From Candidatus Hermodarchaeota archaeon (GTDB lineage Archaea; Asgardarchaeota; Lokiarchaeia; Sigyniarchaeales; SOKP01), in NCBI GenBank assembly GCA_048885525.1, contig JBHLLP010000055.1:1-20987 (forward strand): a DNA stretch of 20,987 bases, read 5' to 3'. The translations under genes and the position numbers were made by a program. Shown piece by piece: positions 6,011 to 14,661 of the stretch; positions within the stretch are counted from its first letter, which is position 1, and each line of letters starts with the position of its first letter. The notes under the pieces were generated by a model. The model was not told where the DNA came from, did no database searches, and was given only the letters and a program-made list of their open reading frames with translations.

Positions 6011-6937
6011 ATGAACGAGCAGTATCGTGACCGATTCTTTAATAATAAATTTGATGAAGATCAATTACCTCAATCAAATTGCTGTAATAATCCATTTATT
6101 GAGTCACGGGACGGCAACAAAGTTTGTTTAAATTGTGGAGTGATTTTTGAACGAACTTTCGTAGGGAATGAAAGGCGTGCTTATACCATTGAAGAAATTC
6201 AGAATCGTCGAAGGACAGAACCACGATGGAGAGATTTTGGACCTAGAACTATGCTCCCGAACACAAAAACAGATAGTAAAGGTAAATCTATCGGGGCAAA
6301 GGAGCAAGCTCTTTTCTCTCGACTTTCAAAAATTCAAAATTCATTAATTTCTAGCATAGAGCGGAATTTTTGGGAAGCAAAGCCAAAATTAAAAATGTTA
6401 ACATCAAAACTTAATATTCCAGAATATATTGCTGAAACAGCATGGAAAATATATAGCATTGTTGCAAAAAAGAAATTAACGATGGGAAGATCAATCAATG
6501 GCTTTATTTCTGGATCTTTATATGCTGCAATTCGAGTTCATGATTTTCCCCGATTATTAGATGAGGTATGTGAAGCCTCATTAACACCAAGGCGAACGGT
6601 TCATAGGAGTTTAGCTATGATTATTCGTGAGGTATTACCGGAACTTAATTTAAGATACCAGCCTATTACTGCTGAAAGTTTGGTATTTCGATTTGGTAAT
6701 GAGTTGGATTTACCGATTAAAATTCAAAAAAATGCAATTAATATGTTAAAAGATGCTTCTAAAAACGGTCTCAAACGGACTGGAAAAGACCCGAAAGGAT
6801 TAGCAGCAGCTTGCATTTATATTGCAGCTAAAAATGGATGTATTCGTAAAACTCAATCACGCGTGGCTGATGTGGCAAAAATAACAGAGGTTACGCTTAG
6901 AAGTCGAGCTAAACAAATTAAAAGTAAATTATCTTAA
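6011..6937 (+). CDS. tfb: Transcription initiation factor IIB (TFB)
   Basis: 308 aa. Zn ribbon CC...VCLNCG, B-reader-like ERRAY, two cyclin repeats (MGRSING..GSLYAAIR; GKDPKGLAAACIYIAA) and HTH TQSRVADVAKITEVTLRSR. Confidence 0.95.
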   Translation: MNEQYRDRFFNNKFDEDQLPQSNCCNNPFIESRDGNKVCLNCGVIFERTFVGNERRAYTIEEIQNRRRTEPRWRDFGPRTMLPNTKTDSKGKSIGAKEQALFSRLSKIQNSLISSIERNFWEAKPKLKMLTSKLNIPEYIAETAWKIYSIVAKKKLTMGRSINGFISGSLYAAIRVHDFPRLLDEVCEASLTPRRTVHRSLAMIIREVLPELNLRYQPITAESLVFRFGNELDLPIKIQKNAINMLKDASKNGLKRTGKDPKGLAAACIYIAAKNGCIRKTQSRVADVAKITEVTLRSRAKQIKSKLS

Positions 6938-6965
6938 CTTCTTTTTTATATTTTTGAAAAAACAT

Positions 6966-7523
6966 TTAAGATTTTTCTTCCTGTTCCTGCAGAAGAGTGT
7001 ATTTTATTCCAACAGCAGTTATGACTAATCCAACGAGTAGAAAATAAGTATTTGCTGAAATAAAGAAAATCCAAAATATTGCAGGCATAATTGGAGTGAT
7101 ATTCATATTATAAAAAGCAGATTGAAAAGAAATAGTAGTCAATGTTGACGTAATCTTTGTTTTACCTAATAAGACTAAATAATTCATTTTAACAAAACCT
7201 GCTAATAAAACTACCATTCCGATAACAACCAGGAACTTTGCTAATGGAATACTTTCAATGTTATCTCTCGAAGCCACTTTAAACATAAAAAATCCAATAG
7301 TAAAATAAAAGATTACTGCAAAAATCATGAAAAACCATAATACGGTTCCTTCAAGCGGGAAAATTGTGGAAGAATATATAAACTCAGCTAGTAAGAAGGA
7401 ATCTCCATCGAGGTTAAAATATACGAAATTTAACAATATAATAAAAACAATTTCGACTAAAGAAATAATAATATATATAGAACCTACGATTTTAAGAAAT
7501 TTTAAGACTTTTTCGTATTTCAT
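6966..7523 (-). CDS. 4-TM membrane protein, unknown function
   Basis: 185 aa with four long hydrophobic segments and short loops. Confidence 0.8.
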   Translation of the reverse strand: MKYEKVLKFLKIVGSIYIIISLVEIVFIILLNFVYFNLDGDSFLLAEFIYSSTIFPLEGTVLWFFMIFAVIFYFTIGFFMFKVASRDNIESIPLAKFLVVIGMVVLLAGFVKMNYLVLLGKTKITSTLTTISFQSAFYNMNITPIMPAIFWIFFISANTYFLLVGLVITAVGIKYTLLQEQEEKS

Positions 7524-7672
7524 AATAAATACACTTTAATCTTTTTAAAAAGCAAGAAAATTTTTTATGCAATTATACTATTATTGTTTTTGAAATTAAT
7601 AAAAATTTTTAATATTATTGCTTTTGACAAATTTTATTTATTGGTAATTATATATTCCGAAATGATTTATTT

Positions 7673-8644
7673 TTGAAAAAGAAGAAGAATTCTAATTCAG
7701 AAATCTCTGTATGTTCGCATAAAAATGTCAAACAAGATAGTGGATTCATTGTTTGTCAAGATTGCGGATTAATTATGGAAGACGGTTTAGCTTTTGAATC
7801 TACAGTAGCAACGAGTGACTTTTTTACTGATTCCCAGAGAGATTATGAAAGAAGGATCAAACTAAGCGACTCAAAGGCTCTCCAAGATCCAGTTATAAAA
7901 GAGAAATACGACCGCATAAAGACCTTAGAAAAATGGTTTCGAGACTATGAATCTGATTTTACTGAACAAAAAAAGACAATTGACTTACTTAAAAGCCATG
8001 GAATTGGATTAAACATTGATAGTGTGAAATTTCAAGGAATTAAAGATAGGTATTTAAAGTATAATAAGTACCACCGTCACAATTATCAAAACATGGTCAT
8101 AATTTTTCTTGCGATTGTATGGATGAAAATTAAGGACACTACAAATATAAGGATCGAGGAATTCATCAAAGTTTCAAGGGAGTTAGGACACAAAATAAAC
8201 AAAAAGATGTTGAATAATGCGATGTTAAAAGTCAAAAGGACTGAAAATATGTTAAAAAGTAAGAAAACTAAATCAGAACTAGAAAGAGAAATCAAAAATA
8301 GGATAAAAATTGTATTTCAAAAAGATTTGAACCATATTCCTTTTGAAGCAGTAAAAGAATTTTTTACTGATAAAGAAGAATTTGAGAAAGTAAAAATGGA
8401 AATGTTGTTATTAGCTGATAAAATATTGAATAAAATCTCATACAAACAAATCCAGAATCTTAATTATAAAGCATTCACAGCAGGTTTAATTTATTACGTT
8501 GGTCAATCTCTTGATAATCGAAAAATATTTACTCAAAGTTTAATTGAACATACAAGTAAATTTTCAAGTACTACTATTAGAAAGAAATATCATGAATTGA
8601 AAGAATTATTTGGAGATGCTCAAACTCTTAAACTCCAAATTTAA
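7673..8644 (+). CDS. Divergent TFB/TFIIB-like protein (Zn ribbon plus cyclin-fold repeats)
   Basis: 323 aa. CSH..(x)..GFIVCQDCGLIM Zn ribbon, AFTAGLIYYVG and FTQSLIEHTSKFSSTTIRKKYHEL correspond to the TFB second cyclin repeat and HTH. TTG start is uncertain. Confidence 0.75.
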   Translation: MKKKKNSNSEISVCSHKNVKQDSGFIVCQDCGLIMEDGLAFESTVATSDFFTDSQRDYERRIKLSDSKALQDPVIKEKYDRIKTLEKWFRDYESDFTEQKKTIDLLKSHGIGLNIDSVKFQGIKDRYLKYNKYHRHNYQNMVIIFLAIVWMKIKDTTNIRIEEFIKVSRELGHKINKKMLNNAMLKVKRTENMLKSKKTKSELEREIKNRIKIVFQKDLNHIPFEAVKEFFTDKEEFEKVKMEMLLLADKILNKISYKQIQNLNYKAFTAGLIYYVGQSLDNRKIFTQSLIEHTSKFSSTTIRKKYHELKELFGDAQTLKLQI

Positions 8645-8731: not shown

Positions 8732-11602
8732 ATGGTATCATCAGAGATGGAAAAACCAAACCATTATTATAATCGACCAATTGAAGATTTGGTTAAACAA
8801 TTCAGTACTAATTTAGATAGAGGATTAAAATCGTCAGAATTAAATCAAAGATATTTAAAATTTGGATATAATGAATTACCAAAAATAAAAAAATCAATTT
8901 GGAAGATTTATCTTGCTCCAATTTTCAATTTTTTGATAGTTATTCTTATTATAACAGGTGTAGTAATAGTAATCTTGGGTTCTGCCGAAGAGACAGTTAT
9001 CACTTTTACCGTTGTAATTTTAAACTCTGCAACAGTAGTAATTCAACAATATAGAGCGCAAAAGGCTTTAGAATCTCTACGTCAAATCTCTGCATTAAAA
9101 GCAACAGTAATTCGAGATGGTAATCAATTAGAAGTACCAAATAGAGAATTAGTACCTGGAGATATTGTAGTATTGGAACAAGGGGATAAAATTCCTGCTG
9201 ATGGGAGAATTATAAGTCACGTAAATCTTACAGTTGATGAAGCCCCTTTGACCGGAGAAAGTGAGCCTGTAGAAAAAATAACTGAAGAAATCCAAGGTAA
9301 GGGCATTTTAATACAAAAACAATCTAATATGATATTCATGGGAACATATATTTATACAGGGAGGGCAAGATCATTGATTACTGGTACAGGTATTAATACT
9401 GAGATTGGTAAAATATCTGAAACACTAAATGAAATGGGTAGTATTGAAGATATCCCCTTGACAAGAAAATTAAATAGATTAGGGTATATTTTAGGTACAA
9501 TCGTAGTAATAAATTTGATTATTTTAATTGTTTATAAATTTTCTTTATTGTTAATTGAAGAAAATTTCATCCAATCAGAAATAAGTAGCACTCTTGTTAG
9601 TTCTATATTAAGAGCAACAAACATTTTACCCATAAATCTTCCTATTTTATCAACGTTAGTTTTAATTACGGGAGTGCTAAAAATGGCTCAAAGTGGTGTA
9701 ATCATCAAAAATCTTTCTTCAATAGAATCTCTTGGTAGAGTTTCTGTAATTTGTTCAGATAAAACAGGAACTATTACCAAAAATGAAATGACAGTTGAAA
9801 AATTTTGGATTAACGAAGAAGAATATGATGTTACTGGCTCGGGCTACGACTCTGAAGGAGAAATATATCAGAATAATACACCTGTAAGTTTGAAAGATAA
9901 TCCTACTTTTATTAAGTTTATAGAATCAATGGTGTTAAATAATAATGCCCAACTTGTATATGAAGATGTTAAAATCCGATTAAAAGAAAAAAGAGAAATA
10001 GCAGTAAGGCGAGCCTTAGGTTCTCCAACTGAAGCAGCTTTATTAGTACTAGTTGAAAAAGCGGGATATATCCCTCATGATGTAAAAAAAGAATATGAAT
10101 TTATTACTGAATATTCTTTTAGTTCTGAATTAAAACGTATGAGCTCAACATATAGGTCAAATAATAAGAAAAGTGATATATTTGTTTTTACCAAAGGAGC
10201 TCCCGAAAGGATTATTGAAATTTCTTCTAGTATTGATATAAATGGAGATATAAAACCTTTAGATTCTGATGTTAGAGAAAAAATATTAAATAAAATAGCA
10301 GATCGTGCAAATGAGGGATATAGAATTCTCGCTTTATCTTATAAAACACTAGATTATATCAACAAACCTAAACGAAAAGATATTGAAAAGGAACTAATCT
10401 TATTAGGATTTGTTTCAATTATGGACCCCCCAAGAAAAGGTGTTAAAGAGTCTATTGAACAATGCCAAAATGGAGAGATAAAGGTTATAATGATTACAGG
10501 GGATCATCCCGCGACAGCGAAAACCATCGCTTCACAGATGGGGATTTACAAACAAGGGGATTTAGTCATCGAAGGATCTCAATTAAAAAATTCAGCAAAA
10601 TTAGATTTTAAAAATATATCAGTCTTTGCTCGTGTAGAGCCTTCAGATAAAGAGATTATTGTCAAACGTTACCAAGATAACGAGCAAGTAGTCGCCATGA
10701 CAGGCGATGGCATAAATGATTCACTAGCTTTAAAGCTTGCTAATGCAGGTATAGCTATGGGTATTACAGGAACAGATGTTGCAAAAGAAACCGCTGATAT
10801 GGTTATATCAGATGATAATTTTACTTCTATTGAAAAAGGTGTAAGAATTGGTCGTGGTTTATTTTCGAAAATTAGGACAATAATCTATTTTTTTATTTGT
10901 TTGAATATAATGGAAGCTATCATCTTTTTTACTTATGAATTCATACCTACATTTGATCTCTTTAGTTCAGAATGGCAGCACATCTACATTTTTGGTATTG
11001 TACACTCTCTTCCTTCATTAGCCCTAGTAATCGATACTCATCCTAAAGATATTATGCTTGAACCTCCTAGGGACGAAGAGCAGATACTAAATAAAAATAT
11101 GTGGATAATGCTGTTAACACAAGCTTTTCTTATGGGTATTGGATTAGTTTTAGCTTTGCAATTAAGTTTAGGGCAAGTTGTTCCTTTAAATGATTGGAAC
11201 TTAAATCCTTATATTAGTTATATCAATCCTGCTTCTCCTTCTTCTGAATTGGTCGCCCAAAAAGCAAGAACTATGTTTATTACAACACTTTATATTGTCG
11301 AAACGAATTTCATATGGACTTTTAGAAGACCGAATAAATCTCTTGTTAGAAGTATCAAAGAAGAATTCAGCCTTTCATTATTAGTTATTTGTATATTTAC
11401 ATTGCTTTTACATATTCTCTATATTTGCTTTTCTTACCTTGTTAACTATTATGTAAATGATGTTTTCGGGTTAGATTTACAGATAAATTTTATGTTCCTT
11501 AGTGGAACAGATTGGATACTTTGCATTTTGCTTGCTTTACCAGGTCTAATAGGTATAGAGGTATTTAAATACATTGCTCGAGAGAGGAATATTCATTTTT
11601 AA
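8732..11602 (+). CDS. P-type ATPase, P2-like scaffold with atypical membrane site (copy 1)
   Basis: 956 aa. LTGES, CSDKTGT (D343), KGAPE, DPPR, MITGDH, FARV, TGDGIND, about 10 TM. M4 reads ILPINLP. Confidence 0.95.
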   Translation: MVSSEMEKPNHYYNRPIEDLVKQFSTNLDRGLKSSELNQRYLKFGYNELPKIKKSIWKIYLAPIFNFLIVILIITGVVIVILGSAEETVITFTVVILNSATVVIQQYRAQKALESLRQISALKATVIRDGNQLEVPNRELVPGDIVVLEQGDKIPADGRIISHVNLTVDEAPLTGESEPVEKITEEIQGKGILIQKQSNMIFMGTYIYTGRARSLITGTGINTEIGKISETLNEMGSIEDIPLTRKLNRLGYILGTIVVINLIILIVYKFSLLLIEENFIQSEISSTLVSSILRATNILPINLPILSTLVLITGVLKMAQSGVIIKNLSSIESLGRVSVICSDKTGTITKNEMTVEKFWINEEEYDVTGSGYDSEGEIYQNNTPVSLKDNPTFIKFIESMVLNNNAQLVYEDVKIRLKEKREIAVRRALGSPTEAALLVLVEKAGYIPHDVKKEYEFITEYSFSSELKRMSSTYRSNNKKSDIFVFTKGAPERIIEISSSIDINGDIKPLDSDVREKILNKIADRANEGYRILALSYKTLDYINKPKRKDIEKELILLGFVSIMDPPRKGVKESIEQCQNGEIKVIMITGDHPATAKTIASQMGIYKQGDLVIEGSQLKNSAKLDFKNISVFARVEPSDKEIIVKRYQDNEQVVAMTGDGINDSLALKLANAGIAMGITGTDVAKETADMVISDDNFTSIEKGVRIGRGLFSKIRTIIYFFICLNIMEAIIFFTYEFIPTFDLFSSEWQHIYIFGIVHSLPSLALVIDTHPKDIMLEPPRDEEQILNKNMWIMLLTQAFLMGIGLVLALQLSLGQVVPLNDWNLNPYISYINPASPSSELVAQKARTMFITTLYIVETNFIWTFRRPNKSLVRSIKEEFSLSLLVICIFTLLLHILYICFSYLVNYYVNDVFGLDLQINFMFLSGTDWILCILLALPGLIGIEVFKYIARERNIHF

Positions 11603-11718
11603 AATAATATCAAGTTTAAAAAGACACTAATTAATGAATTTTAGCAAAAAGCAATAAATTAAAAGTGAATGTTATCATAGGTTATTTATTAAATTGAATT
11701 ATATTTAGAATTCAATTA

Positions 11719-11726
11719 TTTATATA
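11719..11726 (+). promoter_or_regulatory. Candidate TATA box for the second ATPase (possibly leaderless transcript)
   Basis: TTTATATA begins 27 nt before ATG 11746 and no SD is present. AT-rich background lowers certainty. Confidence 0.35.
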
Positions 11727-11745
11727 AAGCTGTGGAAGACCCAGT

Positions 11746-14661
11746 ATGGAATCTACAGAAAAAAATTTTTATAATCTTGAATTAAGCGAGATCTATAAAA
11801 AATTTCAAACCGATCCTAAAAACGGTTTATCTGCAAAAGAAGCAGCGAATCGATTAAAAGAATATGGTTTAAATGAAATCCCTAAAGTATCCAAAGGTTT
11901 TATTAAAATATATCTTGCGCCATTATTTAATTGGTTAATCGTGATATATTTAATAGGGGCAGTAATACTAATTTTAGCATGGGCTTTCGGTGGACAGGGA
12001 GATTTAATAACTGTTGCACTGACTTTATTTATCGTCCTCTTAAATTGTTTAGTTGCTATCATTCAACAATACAGAGCAACTAAAAAGCTTAAAGCTTTAC
12101 GTGAATTAACTGCTCCCACATCAACTATAATTAGAAACGGGCAAAAACAAGAGGTTTTAACCAAAGAAATTGTTATAGGTGATCTATTAGTTTTGAATCA
12201 AGGAGATAAAATTCCTGCAGATGCGAGAATAATCGAATCGTTTAATTTAGTAGTAAATGAGGCTTCATTAACAGGAGAAAGTGAACCCGTAAGAAAAAAG
12301 GAAATAGGAGAAGCGTTGACAAAAAGAGACATCTCTATAGGAGAACGAAGTAATATGGTTTTTTATGGAACATTTATTTCGACAGGAACAGGTAAATCAA
12401 TCGTGGTAAAAACTGGTGGAAATACTGAAATAGGAAAGATTTCTCATGGTTTAGAAGAAGCTGGTACGAGTGAGATTCCAATTAGACAAAAAATGAATAA
12501 TTTTGGTAAATGGTTAGGGATTATTGTGTTTATTTTTTGGTTTATAACATTAATAATTATCTGGGTTGCAAGGGGGACACCTGAAATTGTGGAGAGTTTA
12601 AACTCTGCTCTCGATCTTATGCCAATCAACATACCATTGTTGGTTACAATTGTCTTAATAACTGGAGTTCTTGCTATGGCTCATCGTGGTGTAATTATAA
12701 GAAATCTTGCTTCAGTTGACAGTTTAGGACGTGTAAGTGTTGTATGCTCTGACAAAACGGGTACATTAACTAAGAACCAGATGAGTATTCAACATGTCTG
12801 GACAAATGGATCAATCTTTCGAGTAACAGGTAGTGGTTATAGTCCTGATGGAGATATTGTGCTTATGGATGATCCCAAGAATCATATTTATGTCAAACAT
12901 ATCGATGAATACCCATATCTCAAATTGCTTTTAACCTCTGGATTTCTAAATAATAATTCTGCTTTAGTAAAAAATGAAATTGAAATATCTGGGAAGACCT
13001 TATATAATTGGAATGTAATTGGCTCTCCTACTGAAGGAGCACTAATGGTCTTATTCCAGAAGGGTATGGGTGATTATCTTCTTGAAGATTATGAATCTAT
13101 TACAGAATATCCATTTGATTCTTCTTTAAAACGAATGACTAAGCTTTATAAAAGAGATCAAGTATACATTTCCTTTACTAAGGGGGCAAGTGAAATTTTA
13201 ATGCCTTTATGTTCAAAAGTAATATATAATGATAGTGTAATCGAATTCACTGATGAGATAAAAAAGAAGATTATGGAAATTGTAGATTTATACGCTAATC
13301 AAGGATATAGAATTTTAAGTTTATGTTATAAAGAAATGAATCAGATTCCTCCAGAAGGAGATAAAGGTAGAAAAATAAGTGAAACAGATTTAACATTTAT
13401 TGGGTTTGTTACAATTTTAGATCCACCAAGAGAAGGTGTAAGAGAGTCTGTAGAACAATGTTATGAAGCGGGAGTTGACGTTGTAATGATCACAGGAGAC
13501 TCTCCTGCTACAGCAAGGGCTATTGCTTCACAAATCGCTATAATAACTAAAGAAAGTGATATAGTTGTAGAAGGAAAAAGTATTAACAATATTGAATCTT
13601 ATGATGAATTTTCTAAAATTAAGGTATTTGCTCGAGTATCTCCCGAGCATAAAGAAGATATCGTTGAAAAATATCAAGAACAAAAAAAGGTTGTTGCTAT
13701 GACAGGAGATGGTGTAAATGATGCTTTAGCTTTGAATATGGCTGATGCAGGAGTAGCTATGGGAATTTCCGGTACTGATGTGGCTAAGGAAGCTTCAGAT
13801 ATGGTAATATCTGATGACTCTTTTAATTCAATAGTAACAGGCATTCAACATGGAAGGGGGATATTCGCAAGAATCCGTGCTGTGGTATTTTTTTATATTG
13901 TTATTAATGTGTTTGAAGGAATTGTGCAATTTTTATTAGCAATTATCTTAGATTTACCTTATTTCTTAGATGAGGCTTTCTATTATCAATGGGTTTTTCT
14001 ATCAATAACTTTACATATTTTTCCAGGATTAATTCTTACATTTGATACTACTTCAAAAGATATAATGAAAGAAAAGCCACGAGACTCAGAAGAAATCCTT
14101 TCAAAAAATACTTTTCGTCTATTATTGATATTTGGCATTTTACTTGCAATAAGTATGATAATAGTGTACTTCATAACTATTACAGGCTTCTATCCTGTTT
14201 TTCCTGAAAATATTGTTCCTGGATATTTATATTATGATGAAACACTATTACCTCCTGAGGTATATAATCTTCCAGCCGTAGAATTAGCCGAGATTCTAGA
14301 AAAGATAAATGTAATTAGAACTATTGGAAAAACCTTAACAATGATGATGTGTGTTCTATTTTTCTGCGAATCCTTTCTTGTATATCAGATTAGAAGACCA
14401 AATAAATCTTTAATTAAGAGTCTTATCGAAGATCGAAATAAATTTATGTTTATTCTGATTGGAATTTTATTCTTTGTTTTCATCGCTCTACTTTATATTC
14501 CCGGAGTACAAACTTTCTTAGCAGATTCATGGAGGATCAATTTTATGTTTATGCCTTTAACAGGATTAGATTGGTTGGTATGTTTCTTAATTTCTTTAGT
14601 CTGTATCGTATCATTTGAGATTGTAAAATGGTTAGCGCGTAGAAAAAGTATTACTTTTTAA
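11746..14661 (+). CDS. P-type ATPase, P2-like scaffold with atypical membrane site (copy 2)
   Basis: 971 aa. LTGES, CSDKTGT (D336), KGASE, DPPR, MITGDS, FARV, TGDGVND, about 10 TM. M4 reads LMPINIP. Confidence 0.95.
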   Translation: MESTEKNFYNLELSEIYKKFQTDPKNGLSAKEAANRLKEYGLNEIPKVSKGFIKIYLAPLFNWLIVIYLIGAVILILAWAFGGQGDLITVALTLFIVLLNCLVAIIQQYRATKKLKALRELTAPTSTIIRNGQKQEVLTKEIVIGDLLVLNQGDKIPADARIIESFNLVVNEASLTGESEPVRKKEIGEALTKRDISIGERSNMVFYGTFISTGTGKSIVVKTGGNTEIGKISHGLEEAGTSEIPIRQKMNNFGKWLGIIVFIFWFITLIIIWVARGTPEIVESLNSALDLMPINIPLLVTIVLITGVLAMAHRGVIIRNLASVDSLGRVSVVCSDKTGTLTKNQMSIQHVWTNGSIFRVTGSGYSPDGDIVLMDDPKNHIYVKHIDEYPYLKLLLTSGFLNNNSALVKNEIEISGKTLYNWNVIGSPTEGALMVLFQKGMGDYLLEDYESITEYPFDSSLKRMTKLYKRDQVYISFTKGASEILMPLCSKVIYNDSVIEFTDEIKKKIMEIVDLYANQGYRILSLCYKEMNQIPPEGDKGRKISETDLTFIGFVTILDPPREGVRESVEQCYEAGVDVVMITGDSPATARAIASQIAIITKESDIVVEGKSINNIESYDEFSKIKVFARVSPEHKEDIVEKYQEQKKVVAMTGDGVNDALALNMADAGVAMGISGTDVAKEASDMVISDDSFNSIVTGIQHGRGIFARIRAVVFFYIVINVFEGIVQFLLAIILDLPYFLDEAFYYQWVFLSITLHIFPGLILTFDTTSKDIMKEKPRDSEEILSKNTFRLLLIFGILLAISMIIVYFITITGFYPVFPENIVPGYLYYDETLLPPEVYNLPAVELAEILEKINVIRTIGKTLTMMMCVLFFCESFLVYQIRRPNKSLIKSLIEDRNKFMFILIGILFFVFIALLYIPGVQTFLADSWRINFMFMPLTGLDWLVCFLISLVCIVSFEIVKWLARRKSITF

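Follow-up and report, generated by a model that had tools for sequence, protein, structure and literature searches.

Organization of the locus

Two P-type ATPase genes lie head-to-tail on the window, the whole stretch of 20,987 nucleotides that was analysed. Both copies, A and B, are full-length and share 42% identity; their coordinates and those of the residues discussed below are listed in Table 1. TGES, DKTGT, KGA, TGD and GDGxND are present in both copies with frames intact, and dN/dS values of 0.08–0.13 were obtained for both paralogues against 13 orthologues, indicating strong purifying selection. The scores of copies A and B for TIGR01494 (P-type superfamily) were 276–288 bits, with a cut-off of 62. 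An earlier note on this DNA had described the pumps as catalytically intact, and the five unbroken motif sets and the purifying selection bear this out. It had also placed Ile at the position of SERCA E309 in both copies, after Pro300 (nt 9629) and Pro293 (nt 12622), with 43 residues between the M4 Pro and the phosphorylated Asp (D343 in A, D336 in B) and with TGES, not DGET, in both A domains; these readings were all reproduced. The same 3.58-Mb genome (99% complete) encodes one canonical P2A pump with PEGL (contig C9) and one P1B pump (contig C7).

Table 1. Coordinates of the two tandem genes, their spacer and the residues compared with SERCA
Feature	Position (nt)	Strand	Basis
Copy A: P-type ATPase of 956 aa, paralogue in the His-site P2 clade	8732..11602	+	ORF
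Copy A M4 motif: P300, I301 (E309 position), N302 (G310 position)	9629..9643	+	
Copy A phosphorylation motif, D343	9758..9772	+	
Copy A M5 N725 and E728 (SERCA N768, E771), retained	10904..10915	+	
Copy A M6 H758 (SERCA D800); N796 position is F754	11003..11005	+	
Copy A M8 E857 (SERCA E908), retained	11300..11302	+	
AT-rich spacer between copies A and B, 143 bp	11603..11745	no strand	
Copy B: P-type ATPase of 971 aa, paralogue in the His-site P2 clade, with one of the MK-D1 copies as its orthologue	11746..14661	+	
Copy B M4 motif: P293, I294, N295	12622..12636	+	
Copy B phosphorylation motif, D336	12751..12765	+	
Copy B M5 N721 and E724, retained	13906..13917	+	
Copy B M6 H757 (SERCA D800); N796 position is S753	14014..14016	+	
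Copy B M8 E875, retained	14368..14370	+	

Position among P-type ATPases

Among the NCBIfam profiles, P2A/SPCA ranked first and P4 near last, P1B being lowest apart from P4. Scores of 428–494 bits were obtained with TIGR01116 and TIGR01522 against cut-offs of 703 and 798, these models being eukaryote-centred, so that prokaryotic P2A pumps may fall short of them too. Assignment to P5 failed, with no PPxLP motif in M4 and 246–254 bits for TIGR01657 (cut-off 618). Assignment to P3A failed likewise: M5 Glu and M6 His stand in place of M5 Arg and M6 Asp, the clade is separate from P3A, and its median score for the P3A profile (316 bits) is below that of ordinary P2A pumps (409 bits).

Trees (LG+G4 and C20-PMSF) were built from P1, P2A, P2B-like, P2C-like, P3A and P3B sequences and 6–12 metagenome P4A sequences, leaving P5, P4B and eukaryotic P2C/P2D outside the sampling. 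The clade of copies A and B, an old and Asgard-centred branch, was monophyletic (SH-aLRT 100) and lay within the P2 radiation, separate from P1 and P3. An AlphaFold model of copy B (pLDDT 83) found its best fold matches in SPCA1, SERCA, LMCA1 (Z 33), the PfATP4 Na+ pump (Z 31.7) and Na,K-ATPase, and SPCA1, a Ca/Mn pump, was the top match by both sequence and fold. Both the tree and the structural comparison had been proposed in the earlier note, and both pointed to P2 pumps. Both copies have a complete 10-helix P2 fold. ESM Atlas features of the C-terminal membrane part corresponded to generic cation-ATPase clusters only. With P2A pumps (SERCA1a/2, SPCA1/PMR1, Listeria LMCA1) the clade shares the ten-helix fold, the A, N and P domains, TGES, the 43-residue spacing, the M5 Asn and Glu, the M8 Glu and the best sequence (~30–35% identity), profile and fold matches.

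A rebuilt ion site

Residues of the membrane site were compared in an alignment of 79 dereplicated clade members and 96 canonical P2A pumps, which was later extended (P2A 96–108). The register was set by the P2A columns and by alignment with H,K/Na,K-ATPase, and site ligands and M1 entry acids were defined after PMC3997511.

The column of E309 reads Ile in 77%, Val in 9% and Phe in 9% of the clade (also Leu and Trp), as against Glu in 100% of P2A (96–108 sequences), and the G310 position is Asn in 92–96% of the clade. The N796 position carries Phe, Tyr or Ser, compared with Asn in 97% of P2A, and T799 is lost. The D800 position is His in 99% of the clade (78/79) and Asp in 94% of P2A. Thus the site II ligands E309, N796 and D800 read I/I, F/S and H/H in copies A/B, and of the P2A site I ligands N768, E771 and E908 are present while T799 and D800 are lost. 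The retained acids are kept strictly: E771 in 100% of the clade (93% of P2A) and E908 in 96% (44% of P2A), with N768 in 86%; Hodarchaeaceae members have lost the M8 Glu. The entry path is neutralised, E109 being replaced by Gln and the M1 Asp by Asn, and M2 holds 0.39 acids per sequence versus 2.96 in P2A. Small residues that line site II are replaced by bulkier ones. Met is frequent at two positions of M4 (63% each), and 37% of members have Cys at one position of M5.

By this alignment, Ca2+ site II and the acidic entry path are erased, and what was site I is now Asn(M5)-Glu(M5)-His(M6)-Glu(M8), the Ile at E309 being one part of a coordinated rebuild common to the whole clade. The change of D800 to His with E771 and E908 kept, which the earlier note had missed, is to be regarded as more telling than the M4 Ile. 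In SPCA, PMCA and LMCA1 it is site II that survives and site I that is lost; the clade does the opposite. No described pump with site II erased, site I kept and His at D800 was found in the literature searched. Subfamilies of P-type ATPases are defined by a few membrane residues, and the clade offers a natural experiment on cargo change in these pumps and on built-in counter-ions.

Relationship to P4 flippases

The M4 motif had been taken in the earlier note as flippase-like, with the pumps as possible P2-to-P4 intermediates. P4 marker residues and the hydrophobic gate at E309 were taken from PMC4937031. By the same source Ile or Val at this position is also the state of P3A H+ pumps, as was seen in the P3A sequences of the alignment, and Ile at E309 is therefore not a flippase marker. 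The likeness to P4 (ATP8A2, Drs2) is confined to the Ile after the M4 Pro of the PISL-type motif; the next residue is Asn here and Ser, as in P4, only in Heimdallarchaeaceae members. The M5 Lys (K873) and M6 Asn (N905) of P4 are both missing, as is DGET: M5 reads Asn..Glu and M6 has no Asn, while Lys/Asn was found at M5 in 12/12 aligned P4 sequences. On the M5 Lys the earlier note was thus correct. The 43-residue spacing is that of P1, P2 and P3 in the aligned set; the linker is shorter than in the P4A-type proteins, which were retrieved with 53 residues by a pattern that itself imposed 53. A profile of 34 P4 proteins gave a median of 112 bits for the clade versus 105 for ordinary P2A, and TIGR01652 (P4) gave 108–118 bits with a cut-off of 431. 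CDC50 (PF03381) had no match in the 99% complete genome, in a search that was run without a working positive control. P4B flippases lack CDC50.

In the trees a very long stem led to P4, whose placement was unstable. A tree constrained to join P4 and the clade was not rejected (p-AU 0.78), the free quick search being poor in that test; P4 was therefore grafted onto each branch of a fixed backbone, with 83 placements under plain LG and 15 chosen placements under a mixture model. Grafting P4 as the sister of the entire clade gave rank 28 of 83 (p-AU 0.155); later runs gave 0.09 and 0.056, and the largest mixture-model test 0.043. All nested placements tested under the mixture model were rejected (p-AU 0.0003–0.026), including those beside the Heimdallarchaeaceae PISI members (p-AU 0.005–0.009); under plain LG a few nested placements were not rejected (p-AU up to 0.096). 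The sister position is thus borderline, and an origin of P4 within the clade is rejected under the mixture model. On these comparisons nothing apart from the Ile marks the clade as lipid flippases, and neither its membership in P4 nor a place between P2 and P4 is supported; the flippase idea loses its footing with the Ile/Val of P3A, the missing marker residues and a P4 profile score at the level of ordinary P2A. The best 50 fold matches of the copy B model contained no P4 structure, a list that is no test of P4 affinity.

Distribution and naming

The M4 motif followed by DKTGT at the 43-residue gap was matched in 270/400 Asgard genomes and by 0 in the reversed control, so the matches are not due to chance. 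The pattern missed Heimdallarchaeaceae, where clade members whose position 310 is Ser, Thr or Ala occur in 27/31 genomes (the PISI reading, with Ser, in 23 genomes), bringing the total to ~297/400. In ten genomes of eight other Asgard families only canonical pumps were above threshold. Matches were found in 2/401 Thermoproteota genomes, and a few members from Nitrososphaeria, Bathyarchaeia and Methanomethylicus nest among Asgard sequences. Carriers include Thorarchaeia, Hodarchaeum, Sigynarchaeum, Harpocratesius, bins of Hermod-, Atabeya-, Hel- and Heimdallarchaeota, and Ca. Lokiarchaeum ossiferum; the cultured Promethearchaeum syntrophicum MK-D1 has three unlinked clade copies in addition to canonical pumps. 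Most close homologues (70–91% identity) bear the label Promethearchaeota/Lokiarchaeota and some another Asgard label, which places the host among the Asgard archaea, most likely in Lokiarchaeia.

When 1.84 billion representatives were searched with a profile, ~40 clade-type clusters, whose named members are archaeal, came first and ordinary PEGL pumps directly after them; neither P4 nor P5 was among the best 150 matches. No clade member was found in viral contigs or on plasmids, the best plasmid matches reaching ~32% identity. In bacteria the DNA pattern matched only out of frame or within non-ATPase genes, with the exception of an Aerophobetes bin that holds a Loki-type tandem pair, probably through misbinning.

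No description of the clade was found in the openly searchable literature, subscription papers (e.g. TCDB-based prokaryotic P-type surveys) lying outside this scope. It is apparently an undescribed variant subfamily of P2 ATPases, for which prior mention is possible; the earlier note had claimed as much for a probable Asgard archaeon. Its expectation of mis-annotation was confirmed, databases often labelling the clade as Ca2+-transporting or cation-translocating ATPase. In a survey of Asgard transporters the P-type entries are confined to putative pumps for Ca2+, Mg2+ and copper, and the Ca2+-pump call was used there as an argument for Asgard calcium signalling (PMC7997004). Some three quarters of the Asgard genomes have the clade; it is rare in other groups and makes up an unrecognised part of Asgard membrane physiology behind 'Ca2+-ATPase' labels.

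Gene neighbourhood

At least 18 of 24 genomes from the same genus share the order A then B, with an unrelated gene inserted in the spacer in some relatives. Copies A and B fall in different subclades of the tree and by this measure are old paralogues. Other Asgard classes mostly have one copy, Thorarchaeia a single one. The tandem synteny suggested for examination in the earlier note thus holds within one Lokiarchaeia family and is not a trait of the subfamily. Upstream of the pair in this genus lie genes for TFB, a small membrane protein and a TFB-like protein. In 3 loci the two copies are separated by a VTT/DedA gene. A gene for a RimJ/SpeG-like GNAT follows the pair in most same-genus loci and is absent in this genome. 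Neighbours in other Asgard classes are unrelated; comparison of neighbourhoods revealed no conserved partner subunit across Asgard classes and no conserved metal-homeostasis genes. Gene neighbours do not decide the cargo. A scan for promoters and terminators gave fewer sites than shuffled sequences, the model being bacterial and the host archaeal. The single RNA run with the MK-D1 orthologue was rejected as expression evidence, since its 67-kb contig of flat depth represents DNA carry-over.

Candidate cargo and mechanism

The pumped substrate is probably a small ion other than Ca2+. A non-Ca2+ substrate had been anticipated in the earlier note, and a normal Ca2+ pump would be very unlikely, since E309, N796 and D800 are all lost. 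Our tentative choice, held at somewhat less than even confidence, is a one-site pump for protons or monovalent cations with the His as built-in counter-ion. Each pump would cycle normally, with phosphorylation at D343 or D336 and dephosphorylation by TGES, and would move one proton or monovalent cation (Na+, K+ or NH4+) via the single rebuilt site. The two glutamates at the E771 and E908 positions would hold the ion, and the invariant His would be both protonatable partner and counter-ion, neutralising them once the ion leaves. The logic would be that of P3A H+ pumps (AHA2, Pma1, archaeal P3A), except that M5 and M6 have exchanged their charges.

That the buried acids are kept more strictly than in P2A argues for a charged, cationic cargo, and the hydrophobic M4 gate, the M2 Asn and the single M5/M6 acid-base pair mirror P3A, which favours a proton or monovalent-cation pump. 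Precedents for a counter-ion are R655 for D684 in AHA2 (PMC10654040), the M6 His of P1B-4 pumps (bioRxiv 2021.09.01.458532) and K586 of KdpB (PMC12629597). The likeness to P1B-4 (sCoaT, CtpD) lies in an invariant His in M6, and these pumps differ in class and topology, with 8 helices and an SPC motif. Several observations weigh against a pump for protons or monovalent cations. Some Asgard/TACK genomes have true P3A pumps alongside the clade, so the clade is not simply a P3A replacement; without the M1/M2 entry acids the cation route of SERCA is gone, and their loss would agree with a neutral or organic cargo as well; members from Hodarchaeaceae do without the M8 Glu; and the Glu-His-Glu arrangement could be a purely structural network.

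Export of one of the divalent transition metals Mn, Fe, Zn, Co or Ni through a single site, with the His, the two Glu and the Asn as ligands, is unlikely but the most serious competitor. Such a ligand set suits transition metals, Met and Cys are frequent at the M4 and M5 positions given above, and the top match SPCA1 transports Mn as well as Ca. An M6 His-Glu motif is used by P1B-4 pumps, in which the His has, however, been proposed as counter-ion, not ligand (bioRxiv 2021.09.01.458532). Against metal export stand the lack of a metal-binding domain and of a Cys motif in M4, the low P1B profile scores, the P1B pump already present in the genome and neighbourhoods without conserved metal-homeostasis genes.

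It appears quite unlikely that the clade comprises convergent lipid flippases or organic-molecule transporters, working through an M1/M2/M4/M6 groove that has become neutral, the Glu-His-Glu set serving only to stabilise the core. P4 and P5 ATPases carry organic cargo along the M1/M2/M4/M6 side, the side that is stripped of acids in the clade, which keeps a lipid or organic substrate in play. The gate residue at E309 is hydrophobic as in P4 (PMC4937031), the PISI motif occurs in Heimdallarchaeaceae, and the VTT/DedA and GNAT genes near the pair could be read in the same direction. These neighbours are nevertheless local and differ in other Asgard classes, the gate residue is shared with P3A, the P4 marks in M5, M6 and the A domain are missing, the strictly conserved buried glutamates are unlike P4, and the residues of the wall are bulkier, not more open. 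Taken broadly, as a prokaryotic P-type translocase of lipids or organic solutes that arose by convergence from P2A or as a distant P4 sister, such a function is judged improbable; if true, it would imply active lipid asymmetry in archaeal relatives of eukaryotes.

A Ca2+ or Mg2+ pump with a modified site I only is distinctly doubtful. N768, E771 and E908 are retained, the P2A/SPCA profiles score best (460–494 bits) and the fold is nearest to Ca2+ pumps, but the scores lie far under the TIGR01116 and TIGR01522 cut-offs and canonical P2A pumps are kept in the same genomes. D800 coordinates Ca2+ in both sites, and occlusion requires E309 and N796 (PMC3997511); because D800 serves both sites, its loss makes a residual Ca2+/Mg2+ pump less likely.

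An origin of the clade as archaeal sister or ancestor of the eukaryotic P4 flippases is very improbable, since the Asgard distribution, Heimdallarchaeia included, the unrejected constrained tree and the three p-AU values above 0.05 for the sister placement are set against its rank among the 83 graftings, its p-AU of 0.043 in the largest mixture-model test, the nested placements rejected under the mixture model and P4 profile scores at the level of ordinary P2A.

The preferred proton or monovalent-cation pump and its competitors are experimentally tractable, the genes being single-subunit and copies being at hand in cultured MK-D1 and in Ca. Lokiarchaeum ossiferum.

Variation at the membrane sites

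Heimdallarchaeaceae orthologues of the pumps (L462-L466; genomes G055, G051, G063, G053 and G078), including those of Ca. Heimdallarchaeum aukensis (UJG41771.1) and H. endolithica, carry Ser, Thr or Ala directly after the M4 Ile, which renders the motif almost P4-like. Despite this, Glu in M5, His in M6 and Glu in M8 are all retained, and according to the trees the resemblance is convergent. In Hodarchaeaceae-type members (L115, L146 and L153), the otherwise conserved M8 Glu (E908) is replaced by Ile, possibly reflecting a further shift of cargo or stoichiometry. Separately, some Lokiarchaeia genomes (G203, G266, G271 and G274) encode three to four P3A-motif ATPases each, partly in tandem.

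Gene neighbourhood

Features of the window outside the pump genes
Feature	Position	Remark
Canonical TFB	6011-6937	
Divergent TFB-like Zn-ribbon gene	7673-8644	Weak match, N-terminal only
Open-ended ORF, at least 1081 aa	17743-20987	No Pfam match

Between the two upstream genes (window 6011-8644) lies a third, which encodes a membrane protein of 185 aa that matches no Pfam family, and this trio is kept 5' of the pumps throughout the genus. The two ATPases are separated by a VTT/DedA-domain membrane gene in three loci (L071:6891-7736, L084 and L187) and by a C-GCAxxG-C-C gene in four others. A RimJ/SpeG-like GNAT acetyltransferase gene, located immediately 3' of copy B in most same-genus loci (L074:9539-10087 and 16 others), is missing from the window.

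A Loki-type tandem pair was also present in an Aerophobetes bin (locus L456, contig G404:C68), probably a misbinned Asgard contig; the same luciferase-like gene is found downstream.
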